Assembly: GCA_965249065.1 (NCBI GenBank) | Contig: CBDFLG010000001.1 | Span: forward strand, 1,192,318 to 1,256,317 | Reading direction: 5' to 3' | Length of the DNA: 64,000 bases | Origin: Dehalococcoidia bacterium | GTDB lineage: Bacteria > Chloroflexota > Dehalococcoidia > Lucifugimonadales > UBA3495 | Part shown: positions 48,102 to 56,330 of the stretch, piece after piece | Position numbering within the stretch: position 1 is the stretch's first letter | How the letters are laid out: every line of letters begins with the position of its first letter | Position numbers and translations under genes: made by a program | The notes under the pieces: model-generated | Seen by the model: the letters and a program-made list of their open reading frames with translations, nothing else | The model's database searches: none | What the model was told of the DNA's origin: nothing

Positions 48102-50492
48102 TCATTTATCAGGCTGATTCGCCGCGCCGGGAGTGGGGCTGCCGACAGTCTGAAAGCCGCCGGCGCCATCCGGCACGCGGGCGTAGCTCTGGCCTTCCCC
48201 GGCCTGGCCCTCGGCCCAATCCACCGAATCCATCAAGTCGCCGCCCGCCGTCCAGATGCCCAACTCCTCATCGCCGCCCAGAGCAAACCCGGGCCAGCCG
48301 CCTTTGTCCAACACAATTTGCAAGTATCCGCCCGGTGGGATAACAAAGTCGGACGGGAAGGCTACCCGCTTGCCAACATCCGTCAGGTCGTCCGCCACAA
48401 CAAAGTTAGCCAGGGCCAGATAGGAGTCGGATGAATTGTAAAGCTCGAACCAGTCCAGTGGATCCCCCTTGGCGGCTATCTCGTTGATGACTAGGCTCAC
48501 GTCCGCCTGATCTGTGGTGGCCCTGCCTTCGCCTTCGCTTTTGCCGTCCGGGGGGAGCGGCGGCGCGCCGAACCCGAAGACGCCGGAGAAGTGGCCTGAG
48601 ATGGGAGAGCCCGGGTCCGTGTCGGCCTCAATTAACTCCAGCCGGCCGGACGTAAAGGGAGTGAATGTGTCCGGCGCGGAGGTGCCGGCCGGAATGGACC
48701 ACACCCCGCCTGCAATTTTGTCCTCGCCGATGACCAATGCGGCGCCGGCGGTCAACCGTTCCTGCGGCAGCGCCAAGGTTAATCCCCCAATAGAACCGTC
48801 CGGCTCAAGTTTAAGAACGGTGATGGACGCCGTATCGGCAACGCTGGGCAGCAGGCGGCTTTCCTCCGGTCCGGCGACTCCGGCAATCACCCCCGCGCCC
48901 GCCACGGGCTCTTCCGTTCCGTTGAGCAGCAAAAAAGTGACCGCCCCTTCGCCAAAGGGATTGGCCCGGACGTTAGACCCCCAAGCAGTCTCAAAGCGCA
49001 CTTCTAAAGCGCCGGACTCTGACCCGCCGGAAGGCGCGGCGGCCGGTTCGGGCGCAGGCCATTCCGGCGGCTCCGGCGTGATGTCGTCCAGGATTTCCGC
49101 CCGCCGCTTCTTGATGAACTGCCGCACCCGTTCCGCATCGGCAGCGGCGGCGGCCCTGGTTTTGTGCAAGCCATTCTGCTGCACGATGGTGGCCATTTCG
49201 TCAACGCTTGCCAGCAGGTCCTCTTCGTTCCAGACGGTATCCAGCAATTCTTTCAGGCGGCTGACGTATTTCGTGCGCCAGTCGGGGTTGTTGTACAGCC
49301 GGTTGGGGATGGCCGTGAGAGCCAACACTGACGGCGGCGGATTGCTGATGTCGTCAAAGGGGTTGGGATCGTCCTTCAGGTGGAAAGTGTCATCTACGCC
49401 CCAAGGCATGAACACAAAAGGGCCGTCCGGCTCCCGGTAGAACTGGTAGTTGTTGCGGTCACCGGCATAGCCGTCCCAATGGCCCACCAGCACTTCCGTG
49501 GCCCAGAAGGACAGGAAGCGGTCGAGGTCTACGATGGCGGCCAGGGCTTCCAAGCCGGTTCCGGAGGGATCTTGCAGGGCGGACACTACGGCGTCAATGT
49601 CCGACCAGTCATCGGCGTCTTCGTTGGTCTTCTTTTCAATGGTGCCGCGAAATTCAGGGGTGAAATCGCTGACCGTTCCCTCGTAGAGGTTGCCCTCAAC
49701 GCTGGCAAAGTGGCGCGCTAGGAAGGGGGGCTTGATTTCCTCCAAGTGAACGTACAAGCCCAGGTTCTTCCCATTTACCGAAACCGTGGCGAAGCTGCAT
49801 CGGGACGACGGCAGACCGGCGGCGGCAAAAATTTGGTGAGCCAGACAGGTGTTGACCATTGAGGCGTCCTGAATGCTGTTGTTCAAGGTCATACGCTCAA
49901 TGACGCCGCCCAGGGTCTGACCGTCTGCATATTTGTCGAAGCGGAGCTTGAGGGATGGTTTGGTGTCGCTTTGGGAGCCAATGAACCCCTTTTTGCGGAC
50001 GCCGACTTCGGTATGAGTTTCGCCGTCTACGGTCACCTTGCCCGGGAACCAGGTGTAGATGTTGGCGAAGGGTTGAGAGAGTCCGTATTCCTCGATTTCG
50101 GCCATCAAATCCCCGAATGTCCGGGTCTGATGGCGCAGAGTGTCCCAGTCCTCGGGAGCGATTTCAATAACGATGTTCAGTACCCGGTCGAGGGTGAAAT
50201 AGGCGTCGCTGGGATCGGCTCTCCCGGTTTCCTCAGTGGCCGGCGTCGGCGCAGGAGCGGGAGCCGTGGGCGAAGGCGCCGGCGACTCCGTTGCGGCTAC
50301 CGTAGCCGCCGGGACAGTGGTGGGCATCGGTGCTCCGGTGGTTATTGCGGGCGGAGTGGGCGCGGCATCCGGCCCGCAGCCGACGGCTGACGCCGCCAGC
50401 GCGATAACGAACAGCACGCCCACGATCATTCGGGCCAGAATCAATAGCGGAGTTCCTTCTAGCGCGCGGGCGAGTGTGCGGGGTTTAATCAT
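48102..50492 (-). CDS. CotH kinase-family protein with C-terminal lamin-tail domain, probable lipoprotein
   Basis: VGVRKKG, KPSLKL.F, GLY...E, WDGY...NNY, PWGVD; LVINEI...DWFELYN...PTPG..N; AVGC lipobox-like plus PT linker. Confidence 0.82.
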   Translation of the reverse strand: MIKPRTLARALEGTPLLILARMIVGVLFVIALAASAVGCGPDAAPTPPAITTGAPMPTTVPAATVAATESPAPSPTAPAPAPTPATEETGRADPSDAYFTLDRVLNIVIEIAPEDWDTLRHQTRTFGDLMAEIEEYGLSQPFANIYTWFPGKVTVDGETHTEVGVRKKGFIGSQSDTKPSLKLRFDKYADGQTLGGVIERMTLNNSIQDASMVNTCLAHQIFAAAGLPSSRCSFATVSVNGKNLGLYVHLEEIKPPFLARHFASVEGNLYEGTVSDFTPEFRGTIEKKTNEDADDWSDIDAVVSALQDPSGTGLEALAAIVDLDRFLSFWATEVLVGHWDGYAGDRNNYQFYREPDGPFVFMPWGVDDTFHLKDDPNPFDDISNPPPSVLALTAIPNRLYNNPDWRTKYVSRLKELLDTVWNEEDLLASVDEMATIVQQNGLHKTRAAAAADAERVRQFIKKRRAEILDDITPEPPEWPAPEPAAAPSGGSESGALEVRFETAWGSNVRANPFGEGAVTFLLLNGTEEPVAGAGVIAGVAGPEESRLLPSVADTASITVLKLEPDGSIGGLTLALPQERLTAGAALVIGEDKIAGGVWSIPAGTSAPDTFTPFTSGRLELIEADTDPGSPISGHFSGVFGFGAPPLPPDGKSEGEGRATTDQADVSLVINEIAAKGDPLDWFELYNSSDSYLALANFVVADDLTDVGKRVAFPSDFVIPPGGYLQIVLDKGGWPGFALGGDEELGIWTAGGDLMDSVDWAEGQAGEGQSYARVPDGAGGFQTVGSPTPGAANQPDK

Positions 50493-53274
50493 CTTGCAAC
50501 GCCGCTTGCGCCGCGGCCAGCCGGGCCACGGGAACACGGAAGGGAGAGCAACTCACGTAGTCCAAGCCCACCTCGTGGCAGAAGGCGACGCTGCGGGGGT
50601 CGCCGCCGTGCTCGCCGCAGATGCCGATTTCTAGGTCGGGGCGCACCTTCCGGCCTGCGCGAACCCCCATTCGCACCAGCTCACCCACGCCGTCGCGGTC
50701 GATGCTTTCGAAGGGATCGCCGGGCAGCACTCCCTCGTTGATATAGTTGCGCAGGAACTTACCCTCGGCGTCGTCGCGGCTGAAGCCGTAGGTCATCTGG
50801 GTCAGATCGTTGGTGCCGAAACTGAAGAATTCCGACTCTTGGGCTATCGGCCCGGCAGTGAGGGCAGCGCGGGGCGTTTCAATCATCGTGCCGAACTTGT
50901 AATGCACCTCGACGCCCATCCGTTCCTGCGCTTCGGCGGCGACGCGGGTCAGGTCGGCCCGCAGGCGGCGCATCTCCTCCACGTCCACGGTCAGCGGAAC
51001 CATGATTTCCGGGTTCACCACCAGCCCTTCAGCGACCAGTTGCGCCCCGGCGGTTATGATGGCGTCCACCTGCATCCGGTAGATGGCTGGGAACGAGAGA
51101 CCCAGGCGGCAACCGCGATGCCCCAGCATCGGGTTGGTTTCCCGCAGCGAGTCCACCCGTTGCAGGAACGATTCTTTTTCCGCAATTGTTTCGCTGGGCG
51201 CCCCGGTAGCGCGGAGGGTCGCCAACTCGGTGAGCAGTTCGTCGTAGGGCGGCAGGAACTCGTGCAGCGGCGCGTCCAGCAGGCGTATGATCACCGGGCG
51301 GCGCGACATAACGCGCAGGATGCCGCGGAAGTCGTTGGTTTGCAACCGGCGCACCTGGTCCAGCGCCCGGTAAAACTCGATAACCTCCGATGGTATGTCG
51401 GACACATCCGGGTTCATAAAGGGATTGGACAGCGGATCTATGTGGCGGTCCTCATGTTCCCGGCGCCACTCCTCGGCGGCCTCCGAGTTCAGCAGCATCT
51501 GGCGCACGGCCGGCAGGCGGTGGGGATCGAGGAACATATGCTCGGTGCGGCACAGCCCGATGCCTTCAGCGCCCATGATGATGGCCTGCCGGGCATCGGC
51601 CGGGGTGTCGGCGTTGGCCATTACCCCCAGCTTGCGCGTCTCGTCGGCCCAGCCCAAGAGCTCGCTGGCCTCCGGCAAATCTTCCAGCCGCGGGTTCACC
51701 GTTGCCAGTTCCCCGGTATACACCCGCCCCAGAGCGCCGTCTATGCTGATGCGGTCGCCCTCGCGGAGAGTGTGTCCGTTGCCGCTCATTTCCTGGAGTT
51801 CCAAGTCAACCTGCATCCCTTCGCAGCCGACGATGCAGGGCTTGCCCAGACCGCGGGTCACCACGGCGGCGTGGCTGGTCACCCCGCCCCGGCTGGTCAC
51901 CACCCCAGCGGCGGCGATGATGCCGTGTATGTCGTCGGGCTTGGTTTCGGGGCGGACCAGTATGACCCGCTCGCCGCGGCGGGCCAGGTCTTCGGCCATG
52001 TCGGCGTCGAAGCAGACCTTGCCGGAGGCGGCCCCCGGCGACGCGCCCGCGCCGGTGGCAACCAGCCGCTCCGCCAGTTCGCCCGGCGCAAGGCCGGCGG
52101 CGAACTGCGGCACCAGCAGTTGGGTGATTTCCTCCGGGTCTACCCGGTTTAGGGCCTGTTCCCGGTCAATCATGCCTTCGCGGACCATATCCACCGCCGT
52201 CTTGACCGACGACAGCGGGGTGCGCTTGGCGTTGCGCGTTTGCAGCAGGTAAAGGCGGCCCTCTTCGATGGTGAACTCAACGTCTTGAACGTCGCGGTAG
52301 TGCTGTTCCAGGTTTGAGGCCAGACGCAACAGTTCCTCCGACCGCTCCGGCATCGCGCCGGCCAAGGCCGACAGAGGTTCGGGGGTGCGCACACCAGCCA
52401 CCACGTCCTCGCCCTGCGCGTTAACCAAGAACTCGCCGTACATCATTTCCCCAGGAACGGGACGGCGGCCGGTGGAGGGGTCCCGGGTGAACAGCACGCC
52501 CGTGCCGCTGGTTGGGCCGAGGTTGCCGTACACCATGCCCATGATGGTCACGGCGGTGCCCATGTCATGGTCGATGCCATACTGGTTGCGGTAGACGAAG
52601 GCGCGAGAATTGTTCCAGCTACGGAACACTGCCTCCACCGCGCCGAAAAGCTGCTCCCAAGGGTCGTCGGGCGGCGGCGCACCGGCGGACTCGCGGGCAA
52701 TGTCCTTGAAGTCCCGGACCACAGCCTGCAACTGCGCGGCGCTGAGCTGATAGTCCAGCTCCACCCCAGCGCTCGCCTTGTGGCCTGCCAAACACTCCTC
52801 GAAGGACTCCGGGGCCACTTCCTGCACCACTTCCGCATATATCTGGATGAAGCGGCGGTAGGCGTCCCATGCCGGACGCCGGTCGCCCATCATCGCCCCC
52901 AGTCCCTCGACGATTTCGTCGTTGATGCCCAGGTTCAGGATGGTGTCCATCATGCCGGGCATGGAGATGCGGGCGCCGGAGCGCACCGACACCAGCAGCG
53001 GGTTGGCCGACGAGCCGAACCGGTGCCCGATGGACTCCTCCAGCTCGGCGACGCGCTCGCGGACGGTTCCGGCCAGCCCCTCGGGCAGCGTATACCCACC
53101 GGCCAGATAGTCGCGGCAGACCTGGGTGGTGATGACGAACCCCGGAGGAACCGGCAGTCCCAGCCGGGTCATCTCACAAAGATTGCTTCCCTTGCCGCCG
53201 AGGAGGTCCGCCATCGAGGCGTCCCCCTCGCTGAACCGGTAGACTAACTTCGCTGCCTGAGCTTGAGCAACCAT
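50485..53274 (-). CDS. ppdK: Pyruvate, phosphate dikinase
   Basis: LGGKG, VSVRSGA..SMPGMMDTILN, TSHAAVV phospho-His, GLCRTEHM, FGTNDLTQ, GICGEHGG. Confidence 0.97.
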   Translation of the reverse strand: MVAQAQAAKLVYRFSEGDASMADLLGGKGSNLCEMTRLGLPVPPGFVITTQVCRDYLAGGYTLPEGLAGTVRERVAELEESIGHRFGSSANPLLVSVRSGARISMPGMMDTILNLGINDEIVEGLGAMMGDRRPAWDAYRRFIQIYAEVVQEVAPESFEECLAGHKASAGVELDYQLSAAQLQAVVRDFKDIARESAGAPPPDDPWEQLFGAVEAVFRSWNNSRAFVYRNQYGIDHDMGTAVTIMGMVYGNLGPTSGTGVLFTRDPSTGRRPVPGEMMYGEFLVNAQGEDVVAGVRTPEPLSALAGAMPERSEELLRLASNLEQHYRDVQDVEFTIEEGRLYLLQTRNAKRTPLSSVKTAVDMVREGMIDREQALNRVDPEEITQLLVPQFAAGLAPGELAERLVATGAGASPGAASGKVCFDADMAEDLARRGERVILVRPETKPDDIHGIIAAAGVVTSRGGVTSHAAVVTRGLGKPCIVGCEGMQVDLELQEMSGNGHTLREGDRISIDGALGRVYTGELATVNPRLEDLPEASELLGWADETRKLGVMANADTPADARQAIIMGAEGIGLCRTEHMFLDPHRLPAVRQMLLNSEAAEEWRREHEDRHIDPLSNPFMNPDVSDIPSEVIEFYRALDQVRRLQTNDFRGILRVMSRRPVIIRLLDAPLHEFLPPYDELLTELATLRATGAPSETIAEKESFLQRVDSLRETNPMLGHRGCRLGLSFPAIYRMQVDAIITAGAQLVAEGLVVNPEIMVPLTVDVEEMRRLRADLTRVAAEAQERMGVEVHYKFGTMIETPRAALTAGPIAQESEFFSFGTNDLTQMTYGFSRDDAEGKFLRNYINEGVLPGDPFESIDRDGVGELVRMGVRAGRKVRPDLEIGICGEHGGDPRSVAFCHEVGLDYVSCSPFRVPVARLAAAQAALQDD

Positions 53275-53404
53275 AGGCTGGATACCCCTCCAAGACCTTC
53301 AGATTCCCCGGCTTTTCCTCCGCACAGCCCTCCTTTCACGCACAAACCGGTCTTTCATTATACCCGACGGCGTCGGGCAAGGAAATTTGGCCGCGTCGGA
53401 ACTA

Positions 53405-53534
53405 TAGGGCCTTTTCATTCTCGCCATGCCCTTTTTTCCCTTCGCCCTGAGCCTGTCGGGGGCTGTCCGCCCGTGGTTCGACAGGCTCACCACGAACGGA
53501 CTCTCCCACAACTCCAGAGAATGAAAAGGCCCTG
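53405..53534 (+). mobile_element. MITE-like element (130 bp) with family-C REP interior; left arm of composite unit
   Basis: TIR TAGGGCCTTTTCATTCTC / GAGAATGAAAAGGCCCTG; near-identical inverted copy at 55084-55215. Confidence 0.9.
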
Positions 53535-53544
53535 GAAGTGCGCC

Positions 53545-53687
53545 CAGGACGATTGCAAAGTAATTGTCTGAACCGGGATTTACAGGATTTTGGGATTTTC
53601 AGGATATGGCCAATCCTGGGCATCCTTTAATCTTGATAATCCTGGTTCAGACAATTGCCGCTGGTCAAAGACTTTGCAATCATCCTG
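53545..53687. mobile_element. MITE-like element (143 bp), TIR family shared with 15568-16103, palindromic interior
   Basis: CAGGACGATTGCAAAGT / ACTTTGCAATCATCCTG; perfect 10-bp duplication GAAGTGCGCC at 53535-53544 and 53688-53697; interior AATTGTCTGAACC...GGTTCAGACAATT. Confidence 0.9.
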
Positions 53688-53792
53688 GAAGTGCGCCGGT
53701 TCGCAGTTGACGTCCTTTCCTAGTGGTGTGTATCGTTGGGGCGGCAACCCGTGTTCACGGAAGCGGGCAACTCATTTTATAAGGATCCTGGA

Positions 53793-54922
53793 GTGTTATC
53801 CCTGAGAAAAACGGCAATCCTAGCCACTGGTCTTGCATTGATGGTCATAGCTGGCCTGATGTTTGGCTGGCTGGCCGTCGACCGGGCGCAAGGAGATAGC
53901 CCGGCCCAATCGACCCCTGAACGCATAGCTGGGCACGAAGTGCTGGATATGAGGAACAGCGACAACACCGCCTGCTACTCCGATGATGTGCCTACCATCG
54001 TCTTGAGGGCGAGCGCATCAACCCAAGAGAACCTGCTCTCCAGTGATGCCCCCAATCTTGGCGCCATCCAGCGGGGCCTGCGAAGTGCAGGCTTCCCGGA
54101 GGGAACTAGGATTAGCCTGGTGGGGCCGGGGATTACTGCGGAGATGGTGTCGAAGGAGCAGGCCAGGTGGAACTCGATCCGGGAAGCCAACGGCTGCATC
54201 CAATTCGGCGGCCCCCGGAATTCGGAGGTAATCCAGACCAGTGGAGCGGCGCGACCCTCGTACGTGGGCTACATCGACCCCGGATACTCCTCGATGGTGG
54301 ACTCGGAAATCGGCCCATACACCGACCACAACGCCCAGAGCGTCATCCTGGAAGCCCCCGGATCGGGAGCTCGCAGTCGAACTTCAGCGCGTTCCTCAAC
54401 AATGGATTTACCAACGCGCCCCGGGGAGACCTGCTCCAGAATGGTCTAATATTCGACGGCGAAGATGGCGGCGTGGTGTGGACCGACGAGGCCCACGGCT
54501 TGTCGCCGAGGTACTACAGCATGAGTTACCAGGCGAGCCACGATTACTACTTGACCATATCGTACACCAACGACGAGTGGTGGCTGTGTGCCTCCGACAG
54601 GACGGTGGGGCCAAGCACATATGAGTGCGTCATGTCTCCCGACACCGATGGGACCAGACTGTGGGGCGGAGATAACACAAGCGTCTGGTTTGAAAACCAG
54701 AACAGTAACTTCACATGGTATCAAGGATTCACCAATCCGGTGGTAGCGCACACGGCAAGGAACTACGTCAACGGCGTCTCTAGCAATTGGAGCAGGGAGG
54801 TGCAAGAGACCACGTGGTGCGGCAGCGATTTGCCGGACACGCACGATGCCATATCCGGCACCCTGGTGAACAATGGCACGGCGGAGTTCCACCTGCATCG
54901 CGTGCCGCTGCTATGTCCATAA
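53793..54922 (+). pseudogene. Secreted or membrane-anchored protein, possible G1 glutamic peptidase-like C-domain; frameshift in C-run 54355-54359
   Basis: GTG start behind AAGGA, N-terminal hydrophobic segment; one extra C joins ..VILEAP to RIGSSQSNFSAFLNNG..; LLQNG and SVWFE motifs. Confidence 0.65.
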
Positions 54923-54960
54923 GGAGTGCCTAACGGCCCGCAAACGCACCACCCCAAAGA

Positions 54961-54989
54961 TGAACCCCGCTGGACATCAGCGGGGTTCA
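54961..54989 (+). terminator. Strong hairpin after cargo gene
   Basis: TGAACCCCGCTG-GACAT-CAGCGGGGTTCA, 12-bp perfect stem; no clear U-tract. Confidence 0.5.
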
Positions 54990-55083
54990 AGCTTGTCACC
55001 ACCCCCTTTCCAGCTCACCCCAGATCCTAACACCCCGCAGACCGCCACAATCCCTGCCCTCCCAGCATCACCACCGCACTCCC

Positions 55084-55215
55084 CAGGGCCTTTTCATTCT
55101 CTGGAGTTGTGGGAGAGTCCGTTCGTGGTGAGCCTGTCGAACCACGGGCGGACAGCCCCCGACAGGCTCAGGGCGAAGGGAAAAACATGGGCATGGCGAG
55201 AATGAAAAGGCCCTG
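55084..55215 (-). mobile_element. MITE-like element (132 bp); right arm of composite unit
   Basis: Perfect 18-bp TIR CAGGGCCTTTTCATTCTC; reverse complement of 53405-53534 with few differences. Confidence 0.9.
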
Positions 55216-55296
55216 GTCGGAACTGGGCCACCCATGAGCAAAGAATTCCCCCTCCCTTGAGAGAGGGTTAGGGTAAATTCCCACGCAATAAGCGCC

Positions 55297-56298
55297 CTAA
55301 ATTTCCCGAAAGACCGGCTCCGGGTCCTCCAGGTAGAACTTGTTCTGCCACAGCTCATCCATCAGCCCCTGCTCTTCATCGGTCAGCGGCGGAGTGTCCA
55401 CTGCGGCGGTGTACTCCCGCAGATCGTCCATCTTGGTAAAGTTGGGCAGCACCGATACAATCTGCGGCTTCTTCAGCACGAACTGGATGGCCGACTGCGC
55501 CATGGTGCGGGTATCTTCCTGGACGAGGAACTGGACCCGCTGAACCTTCGCCAGCGCCTCGCGCATCCACTCGGCGCGGCGGTGGGCGCGGTGGTCCGAC
55601 TCGTCGAACGCCGGCACCTCGGTGAACTCGCCCGTCAGCGTGTTGGAGGCGTGAGGCACCCGCGACAGCAGCCCAATCCCGCACTCCTCGGCGATGGGGA
55701 AGAAGTCAATGGCCGGCTCCTGCTCTAGGATGCTGTAGATGATTTGCAGGCTGTCCACCTGCCGCTCCCGCATCGACTTTTCGCCCTCCTCGAACCAGCC
55801 GATGTCCGGCCCCAAGGCGACGCCGAAGTGCCGAATCTTGCCCTCGAACTTGAGCTGCTCCAGGACCTCGAAAAGCTCATCGCGTTCCAGTGCGTCCACC
55901 CGCGGGTTGTGAATCTGGTAGAGGTCAATGTAGTCGGTGTCGAGGCGCCGCAAGCTCTGCTCGCAAGCGAACTTCACGAATTCGCGGTCGAACTTCTGCG
56001 GGCGTTCCCGGTGGCCGTCGCGGGGCGCTGGGTCGTAGATGTCGTAGCCGAACTTGGTGGCGATGACGATGTCGTTGCGCTTGTGGCCCAGCACTTGGGC
56101 CAGAATTTCCTCGCCGTATCCGTCGCCGTAGGTGTCGGCGGTGTCGAAGAAGTTCACGCCCAGCTCCACCGCGTTCTCCAGCAGCGCGGCCCGCTCGGCC
56201 TCCTCAATGCGCCCCCACCAGTTGGTGGCAACGGTCCACACCCCAAACCCCACTTCCGAAAGAACAAGATCAGTTCGCGGCATTTGTCGAAATTTCAT
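55297..56298 (-). CDS. Aldo/keto reductase
   Basis: GFG.W, FFDTADTYG, ATKFG, SLRRL.TDYIDLYQIH, GKIR.FGV. Confidence 0.93.
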   Translation of the reverse strand: MKFRQMPRTDLVLSEVGFGVWTVATNWWGRIEEAERAALLENAVELGVNFFDTADTYGDGYGEEILAQVLGHKRNDIVIATKFGYDIYDPAPRDGHRERPQKFDREFVKFACEQSLRRLDTDYIDLYQIHNPRVDALERDELFEVLEQLKFEGKIRHFGVALGPDIGWFEEGEKSMRERQVDSLQIIYSILEQEPAIDFFPIAEECGIGLLSRVPHASNTLTGEFTEVPAFDESDHRAHRRAEWMREALAKVQRVQFLVQEDTRTMAQSAIQFVLKKPQIVSVLPNFTKMDDLREYTAAVDTPPLTDEEQGLMDELWQNKFYLEDPEPVFREI

Positions 56299-56330
56299 GA
56301 TGGTCAACCTCGAATGTGTTGGAATGCCAG

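Follow-up and report, generated by a model that had tools for sequence, protein, structure and literature searches.

A Probable Composite Transposon with ISAs1-Family MITE Ends near the Predicted ppdK Promoter of a Dehalococcoidia Bacterium

RESULTS

Organization of the ppdK-akr interval

The window analyzed here is a stretch of 64,000 nucleotides from the assembled genome of a Dehalococcoidia bacterium (assembly of 3.83 Mb, 94.9% complete). Between ppdK, which is transcribed away from it, and the aldo/keto reductase gene akr lies a unit of 1,811 bp including both of its arms; the features of this region are collected in Table 1. The arms, of 130 and 132 bp, repeat one sequence in opposite orientation and share 97.7% identity across 131 alignment columns, with a 100% complementary stretch of 103 nt detected by repeat search and with terminal inverted repeats (TIRs) of 17-19 bp in each. 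The sequences just outside the two outer ends match at nine of ten positions, a level that random pairs of 10-mers from the genome reach at a rate of 6.7e-5; 55 of the 548 end pairs tested in the genome had a flank match of at least 9/10, versus about 0.04 expected. No duplication of its own was found for either arm (over 9-11 bp, the best matches were 0.22 and 0.27), and comparison of the inner flanks with each other and with the outer flanks showed no copy in either direct or inverted orientation. Several solo MITEs of congeners have no duplications either, so the absence of an own duplication is, by itself, weak evidence. When a sequence consensus in the duplications was sought among 34 targets, it had to be rejected, as they showed only a slight preference for G/C and for central A/T.

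Just inside the left arm is a third MITE with its own perfect 10-bp duplication; GAAGTGCGCC is common to this MITE and the left arm, which hit the same target twice. The first 16 bp of the third MITE are those of one end of a broken ISAs1 element at G000:C2:1739221-1740451. Within the assembly, the arm MITE has no close copies other than these two arms, the next relatives being 72-79% identical. The unit contains no transposase gene: neither internal open reading frame gave a Pfam match, and no PF01609 or PF13808 match was present at C1:1245722-1247532. The hairpin past the cargo stop codon is likely a terminator; it was not called by a consensus terminator scan. Short-read contigs, assembled from runs of two studies and including one sample that is possibly the source of the assembly, covered both junctions (53215-53462 on the left and 55156-55342 on the right) and the interior (53506-55112) with no differences.

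A first-pass annotation had described near-identical inverted arms of about 130 bp with 18-bp TIRs, outer flanks alike at nine of ten positions, no flanking duplication for either arm alone, and a third MITE and a hairpin between them, and all of these features were recovered at the same coordinates. It had also placed one lower-GC gene inside; a gene is indeed there, but it is not intact, being split by a frameshift into two overlapping reading frames, and its GC content is only modestly low.

Table 1. Features of the unit, its neighbors, and related duplication-bounded units (window positions unless a contig, C1 or C2, is given)
Feature	Position	Strand	Basis or remark
ppdK (pyruvate phosphate dikinase), left neighbor	50485-53274	-	ORF; Pfam PPDK_N, PEP-utilizers, PEP-utilizers_C
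Predicted ppdK -10 box, TATAAT	53357-53362	-	Consensus prediction; box conserved in congeners
Weak candidate ppdK -35 box (3/6)	53380-53385	-	Outward position 20
Left target-site copy, GTCGGAACTA	53395-53404	+	Equals the single copy of the G022 empty site
Left arm, ISAs1-family MITE	53405-53534	+	TIR CAGGGCCTTTTCATTCTC; outer first base T in place of C
REP-like palindrome within arm	53437-53500	.	Partial matches at many other genome sites
GAAGTGCGCC, copy 1	53535-53544	+	Inner flank of left arm and first duplication copy of third MITE
Third MITE, 143 bp, of another ISAs1 subfamily	53545-53687	.	
GAAGTGCGCC, copy 2	53688-53697	+	
Predicted cargo promoter, TTGACG-18-TATCGT	53707-53736	+	Consensus prediction
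Cargo pseudogene, about 375 aa	53793-54922	+	1-bp frameshift near 54355-54361
Perfect 12-bp hairpin past cargo stop codon	54961-54989	.	Repeat search
Right arm, inverted copy of left MITE	55084-55215	-	
Right target-site copy, GTCGGAACTG	55216-55225	+	Last base unlike the G022 state
akr (aldo/keto reductase), right neighbor	55297-56307	-	ORF; Pfam
Duplication-bounded ISAs1-ended unit with serpin gene	C1:503671-506657		
Duplication-bounded ISAs1-ended unit >1 kb	C1:607306-611283		
Duplication-bounded unit, LRR lipoprotein between unlike MITEs	C1:1468755-1470604		
Duplication-bounded unit with transposase-like ORF	C2:1933101-1935108		IS66-like by inspection
Two-arm unit without gene	C2:2135531-2136212		10/10 duplication

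The cargo gene

Comparison with homologues indicated that the cargo starts at a GTG at 53793 and that the frameshift is a 1-bp loss. A long-read error was rejected as its cause, since the short-read contigs have an identical, ungapped sequence there. The GC content of the cargo is 0.57-0.61, versus 0.617 for the genome and 0.66 and 0.62 for ppdK and akr, and its GC3 is 0.73-0.76 versus 0.83-0.85. No protein profile in Pfam, NCBIfam, or the PDB set matched it. The intact homologue in G022, the closest congener, is 380 aa long and has 148 relatives at E<=0.001; a structural model of it (pLDDT 89.7) gave as its top Foldseek matches scytalidoglutamic peptidase (2ifw) and 1s2b (best E 1e-7, TM 0.67 by target), followed by YncM and then neprosin. 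Family G1 peptidases typically have a catalytic Gln/Glu dyad. In a 79-row alignment, Q218 and E303, candidates for such a dyad, are near-invariant, being conserved in at least 90% of the 79 homologues, and the cargo has an N-terminal hydrophobic segment. From the model and these residues, the cargo is likely to have encoded a secreted glutamic peptidase of the predicted eqolisin fold. The G1/eqolisin proteins (2ifw, 1s2b), Bacillus YncM (4hfs), and neprosin all resemble the fold predicted for the G022 homologue; relative to the G1/eqolisin family, the cargo shows the near-invariant Gln and Glu as a candidate dyad, the hydrophobic N-terminal segment, and an extra N-terminal domain, whereas it differs from the G1/eqolisin structures in having only about 11% sequence identity, no profile match, and, in the window copy, a frameshift. 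ESM features separately placed the protein in a Peptidase_A4 cluster at 0.93, which we take as a lead only. The frameshift cuts off the predicted catalytic part from the N-terminal part with the signal, and this copy probably confers no current benefit, as the cargo is a pseudogene.

A matching ISAs1 element

The TIR of the arms is common to elements of 0.4-3 kb in this genome with duplications of 10 bp, and the superfamily is abundant, with 321 end-like matches at up to three mismatches. The first-pass annotation had called for an autonomous insertion sequence with matching ends, and such an element turned up in the ISAs1 family, in G021 and other congeners, although not in intact form in this assembly. 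The G021 element is 1,273 bp long and carries two open reading frames, both above the NF033564 cut-off and, by their coordinates, offset by +1 (or -2); its ends match the arm TIR at 18 of 18 positions at one end and 17 of 18 at the other. It is present in at least 32 full-length copies of about 100% identity (40 of 76 candidates were scored), and perfect 10-bp duplications (10/10) flank 29 of 35 copies. This partner element is recently amplified; relatives at 77-80% identity occur in G003 and G046. Thirteen ISAs1 elements could be delimited among 29 congener loci, every one with CAGG-type ends and 10/10 duplications, and the available text on ISArsp11, also of this family, gives CAGGGC.. ends and a 10-bp direct repeat (PMC6305408). 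The arms thus share with ISAs1 insertion sequences (NF033564, PF13808) TIRs starting with CAGG and 10-bp duplications and differ from them in carrying a REP-like palindrome and no transposase; judged from their ends, they are ISAs1-family MITEs. PF13808 matched three times in this assembly, each time in a broken gene of another ISAs1 subfamily, and neither an intact cognate transposase nor a G021-type element was found in what is a 94.9%-complete assembly. The helper transposase would therefore have been lost, left unassembled, supplied from a foreign source, or provided by a cross-reacting element.

An empty site and a variable interval

We compared the ppdK-akr interval across 20 congeners. 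In G022, which is about 88% identical, the left flank leads into a single GTCGGAACTA and then into sequence resembling the right flank of this genome, the single-copy empty state that the earlier annotation had predicted. This motif is present at the interval in G022 alone among the 20 congeners; the empty-site evidence comes from one species at about 88% identity, where the unique sequence right of the motif spans only about 25 bp before a hairpin that is a common repeat. Farther along the interval, G022 carries a 3.3-kb insert of its own. The interval is a variable hotspot: 13 of the 19 measurable congener intervals exceed 1.2 kb and differ in content, the other six are 43-377 bp, the region has a different arrangement in G002, and ppdK and akr are unlinked in three congeners (loci L055-L059). 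ISAs1-type ends were found in one of the 13 inserts longer than 1.2 kb, so the suggestion that units of this kind account for lone accessory genes is only partly borne out.

The cargo gene occurs in two of 40 genus genomes. The earlier annotation had named carriage of the cargo at this locus without the MITE arms as the pattern that would speak against its reading; no congener has the cargo at the ppdK-akr locus, and no ISAs1 ends were detected beside the G022 homologue, which lies at a different locus. Beyond the 72-79% relatives, neither a second copy of the unit nor close arms were found in this genome, and none were found in 40 relatives; in 150 genomes of the order (E<=1e-20) the unit was not found again, the third MITE alone being matched. 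Searches for a donor locus yielded one cargo homologue among genome contigs and none among metagenome contigs, without locating the donor itself; cargo homologues of about 88-90% identity lie on short contigs of some sequencing runs. Among the contig joints listed for eight runs, none skipped exactly the unit; as contigs are prone to drop rare variants, this does not count as evidence about an empty allele. No RNA run was among those listed for the sequence.

Spacing of ISAs1-type ends to predicted promoters

Promoters were predicted from the consensus, with matrix weights approximating the sigma70 consensus and a -10 threshold of 6.5. For the 50 outermost duplication-bounded elements of this genome, 17 flanks had an outward-reading -10-like hexamer that started at position 43, and eight had one that started at position 42. 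Such a hexamer fell at 41-43, a window chosen after inspection of the histogram, in 26 of the 50 elements, versus 0-5 in twenty other 3-nt windows, and at 37-48 in 31 of the 50, versus 4.2% of random sites. As an independent test, the same was asked of 35 G021 copies (the 32 plus one longer variant and two interrupted copies, with a contig-end copy excluded); 25 of the 35, which are partly non-independent in that two pairs have a common flank, had a -10 at 41-44, 11 of them on the IRL side and 14 on the IRR side. In G021, 24 flanks had a -35-like hexamer starting at position 20 and six had one starting at 19, with no more than four anywhere else. Among other congener ISAs1 elements, six of 12 had a match at 39-46. 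From these positions, ISAs1-type elements appear to land, as a statistical preference, about 18-19 bp upstream of predicted sigma70-type -35 boxes.

The unit follows this pattern at its left side. From its outer left end, the TATAAT of ppdK starts 43 nt out, the modal ISAs1 insertion position. Inside the unit, 19 bp separate the MITE end from the cargo TTGACG, so that this -35 starts at outward position 20; the predicted cargo promoter is the sole promoter-like match in 53250-55350 (shuffles average 0.6) and stands 57 bp ahead of the cargo start codon, its -10, at position 44, scoring 5.6 and thus under the 6.5 threshold. No promoter-like site was found at the right arm, on either its inner or its outer flank, which is compatible with a donor-locus step for that arm and is not proof of one. 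In two congeners, G018 and G005, other ISAs1-type ends lie at the same ppdK promoter, at position 41, and these insertions led us to the distance-to-promoter test. Neighboring right-end/left-end pairs of ISAs1 elements within 200 bp of each other were spaced 9-11 bp apart in six of eight cases (0.013 expected), and in congeners up to three elements are stacked on one target; such stacking would arise because of a fixed promoter-spacing rule. The rule accounts for the stacked MITEs, for the ppdK promoter being hit repeatedly, and for a gene being captured together with its promoter.

Other candidate carriers

Among 1,376 end pairs tested at distances up to 200 kb, seven delimited ISAs1-ended, duplication-bounded units longer than 1 kb, the present unit and a broken insertion sequence included (Table 1). 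The first-pass annotation had proposed a search for further MITE pairs enclosing genes; two were found, at C1:1057833-1058609 and C2:944348-945519, but neither has a shared outer duplication. Each has a gene-facing promoter-like site at the rule spacing, with -10 scores of 3.9 and 8.1, respectively. No second gene-bracketing two-arm unit was seen in congeners among 28 regions picked by eye from pattern matches in 12 genomes.

DISCUSSION

Origin of the unit

The shared outer duplication, the empty site in G022, and the matching ISAs1 element support the proposal, made in the first-pass annotation, of a one-piece insertion by a transposase acting in trans. We think it very probable that the unit, known from one copy at one site, inserted in this way, an ISAs1 transposase having acted on both outer ends. 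We propose that at a donor locus one MITE would have inserted ahead of the cargo promoter and another copy beyond the cargo terminator, probably ahead of the promoter of the next gene, each arm with its own target duplication, GAAGTGCGCC and CCGCACTCCC. The transposase would then have paired the two outer ends, and the block would have been inserted through a 10-bp staggered cut at the position preferred by the family, with about 19 bp between it and the predicted ppdK -35 box downstream. Either before this jump or after it, the third MITE may have entered the same promoter-defined target next to the left arm. Later decay could have altered a base of the right duplication and the left terminal base, introduced a small indel between the arms, and produced the cargo frameshift.

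Other histories would make use of the same features. Given the stacking of ISAs1 ends on one target, in this genome and in congeners, and the variability of the ppdK-akr interval, the arms might have piled up stepwise by separate insertion at one ppdK target, with the cargo later replacing the middle by recombination or inside-end transposition. Such a pile-up is very unlikely, however: the middle target copy has left no trace, the inner flanks agree at only 2/10 positions and do not form the direct repeat expected from inside-end transposition into a circle, and the inner end of the left arm lies at the family spacing from the predicted cargo promoter, pointing instead to an insertion beside the cargo in a donor locus. 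In maize, Ac/Ds composite insertions arise by same-end transposition between sister chromatids, and a comparable event could have duplicated one MITE in inverted orientation and captured the adjacent gene. The arms are the only near-identical copies of this MITE in the genome, both have the same end on the outside, and AGTGCG is common to the two inner flanks, all of which would fit such an event; yet it would have extended the 97.7% arm identity into the flanks, where likeness is far lower, and the likeness of the inner flanks was rejected as significant, as 7% of 31,562 unrelated flank pairs equal it. We regard this route as no less improbable than the pile-up.

Superfamily MITEs are numerous enough here that two of them could have inserted independently around a resident gene, the outer flanks matching by chance or through a later inversion between the arms. 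The random rate for a 9/10 match speaks against chance, the collapse of the site to a single copy in G022 speaks against separate events, inversion between the arms should have left reverse complements of the outer flanks inside, where none are seen, and a resident gene is hard to reconcile with the absence of the cargo from this locus in the congeners; we consider this account scarcely credible.

Beyond one-piece insertion of this unit, a broader reading can be put forward, tentatively and at somewhat less than even odds. ISAs1 transposases would home to one fixed position just upstream of housekeeping promoters, their MITEs thereby marking where one transcription unit borders on the next, and MITEs paired at successive promoters would excise exactly one promoter-gene-terminator cassette and deliver it, still expressible, upstream of another promoter that is left unbroken, a gene-capture system that trims itself; in this lineage they would have moved genes for secreted proteins (peptidase, serpin, LRR lipoprotein). 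The transposase might find promoters by contacting either the RNA polymerase holoenzyme or the DNA of an open complex.

Relation to known composites

MITE-bounded composites as such are already known, as IMU and TIME-COMP; the ISAs1-family version appears to be new. The accessible portions of the reports describe TIME-COMP1/2 as likewise mobilizable in trans and captured in trap plasmids (PMC4133298, Szuplewska 2014) and IMU as mobilized in trans (PMC3184786), and the parts available of a 2026 survey by Gomi and Yano list Tn3-type cases, count 65 MITEs in ISfinder, and state that no non-TIME examples are known in Enterobacteriaceae (PMC13367494). According to these partial sources, TIME-COMP and IMU resemble the unit in that two MITEs, direct or inverted, bracket cargo without a transposase over 1.2-11 kb, with a single duplication outside the outer ends; they have Tn3-family ends and 5-6-bp direct repeats (DRs), and lie mostly on plasmids with resistance genes, whereas the unit has ISAs1 ends, a 10-bp duplication, a native ppdK-akr interval as its site, a predicted peptidase pseudogene as its cargo, and a seemingly fixed promoter distance. 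The unit therefore falls outside TIME-COMP in the strict sense, which requires Tn3-family inverted repeats and 5-6-bp DRs, and it has the two complete copies, the sole outer duplication, and the absence of an internal transposase that mark a MITE composite. In Acinetobacter, a pair of 439-bp MITEs around class 1 integrons, with one outer 5-bp DR, is interpreted as a composite transposon in the text available (PMC3934969, Zong 2014; PMC10969869). That pair is likewise a non-TIME pair with one outer DR; it differs in its direct orientation, its 5-bp DR, and the lack, in the accessible text, of an IS partner, whereas for the unit the partner family is identified.

MITE composites escape standard annotation, and the present unit would extend their architecture to the ISAs1 family in a form that is directly testable, as an empty site and a partner insertion sequence have been identified. 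Target choice is the more important point, since an apparently fixed promoter distance would here occur in an unrelated DDE family, with 35 near-identical copies of one insertion sequence to examine. Landing near promoters would let such MITEs carry whole genes along with their own promoters. If confirmed, the spacing raises the question of whether the transposase binds RNA polymerase or sigma, and it suggests a gene-sparing integration tool.

Promoter targeting in other families

In the literature searched, targeting at a fixed distance from promoters was described for Mutator-like elements only. In the accessible text of Guerillot 2014, which does not mention ISAs1, TnGBS/ISLre2 and ISKra4-group elements insert upstream of sigmaA -35 boxes with a constant spacing (PMC3942029). 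As described there, elements with near-symmetric inverted repeats use both orientations, as does the G021 element with its IRL-side and IRR-side cases; TnGBS/ISLre2 (p-MULT 3) and ISKra4-group elements differ in having Mutator-like transposases and a spacing of 15-17 bp, versus 18-19 bp from the element end for ISAs1. A fixed promoter distance of the TnGBS type is thus seen for ISAs1-type elements with predicted promoters, and the partner transposase is of the ISAs1 and not of the Mutator-like p-MULT type. Neither an ISAs1 MITE composite nor a family-wide ISAs1 promoter rule was found in this search, the coverage of which extended to few subscription journals.

IS1548 is a member of the ISAs1 family. 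A 2013 study by Flechard is said to be dedicated to IS1548 target sites and may cover an ISAs1 promoter rule. The available portions of three reports describe single insertions of IS1548 in or near promoter regions (PMC2875397, PMC5005324, PMC8744998), and in the first of these the putative lmb promoter begins 9 bp from the element, which is placed upstream of it, a distance compatible with a 10-bp duplication and a further 9 bp.

Other ISAs1-ended units carrying genes

Further units with ISAs1-type ends enclose genes in G000, the source genome of the window, and in two other places paired MITEs bracket genes (see the table). The serpin gene was intact (PF00079, E 1e-112), and with an approximate sigma70 consensus matrix a −10 box was predicted at position 42, counted in nucleotides outward from the element end. 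The LRR unit carries a gene for a 188-aa LRR lipoprotein-like product; inside the mixed unit are half an ISAs1 gene, an ORF for a membrane protein, a second DDE transposase and an apparent tRNA gene, judged by eye. Neither MITE pair had a shared outer duplication, and the genes that they enclose look, on reading of the sequence, like a toxin-antitoxin pair and an aspartyl-protease gene.

Gene-carrying ISAs1-ended units and MITE pairs in G000 (C, contig; L, fetched locus)
Feature	Position	Length (bp)	Ends	Outer duplication	Enclosed gene
Serpin unit	C1:503671-506657 (L103)	2,987	TIR family as in the focal unit	10/10	serpin
LRR unit	C1:1468755-1470604 (L104)	1,850	dissimilar ISAs1-type MITEs	10/10	LRR
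Mixed unit	C1:607306-611283	3,978	ISAs1	10/10	mixed
MITE pair	C2:944348-945519		inverted, 92.5%		apparent toxin-antitoxin pair
MITE pair	C1:1057833-1058609		direct, 96.9%		apparent aspartyl protease

Transposase elements and repeats

An ISAs1 element of the congener G021 (e.g., L094:1424-2696) is present in 32 near-identical copies and was amplified recently. In all full-length copies its transposase is split into two ORFs with a +1 offset at a T/C run, and the recurrence of this split in each of them suggests programmed recoding or slippage. In a broken G000 element (C2:1739221-1740451) a comparable offset falls on an A run, and one more shift is present.

About 20 G000 sites (e.g., C1:165356-165907) hold copies of an amplified, roughly 545-bp element in which a 134-bp MITE is combined with a conserved non-coding cassette and one additional outer end; its moves are accompanied by 10-bp duplications. 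In congener G047 (C1:887345-887486; L113) five 31-bp units lie in tandem, each closed by an ISAs1-type terminal repeat. Both MITE types contain long palindromic REP-like hairpins (window 53437-53500 and 53562-53656); the same hairpins occur without TIRs at many G000 sites and in many unrelated contigs of read sets.

The insertion interval and the cargo family

The interval between ppdK and the aldo/keto reductase gene (window 53275-55296), compared in 19 congeners, is an accessory-gene hotspot: 13 carry differing inserts of 1.3-5.1 kb, most of which lack ISAs1 ends. A second homologue of the cargo family, in congener G022 (C1:3716570-3716893; L102), is truncated, as are several database homologues; therefore, this family decays often.
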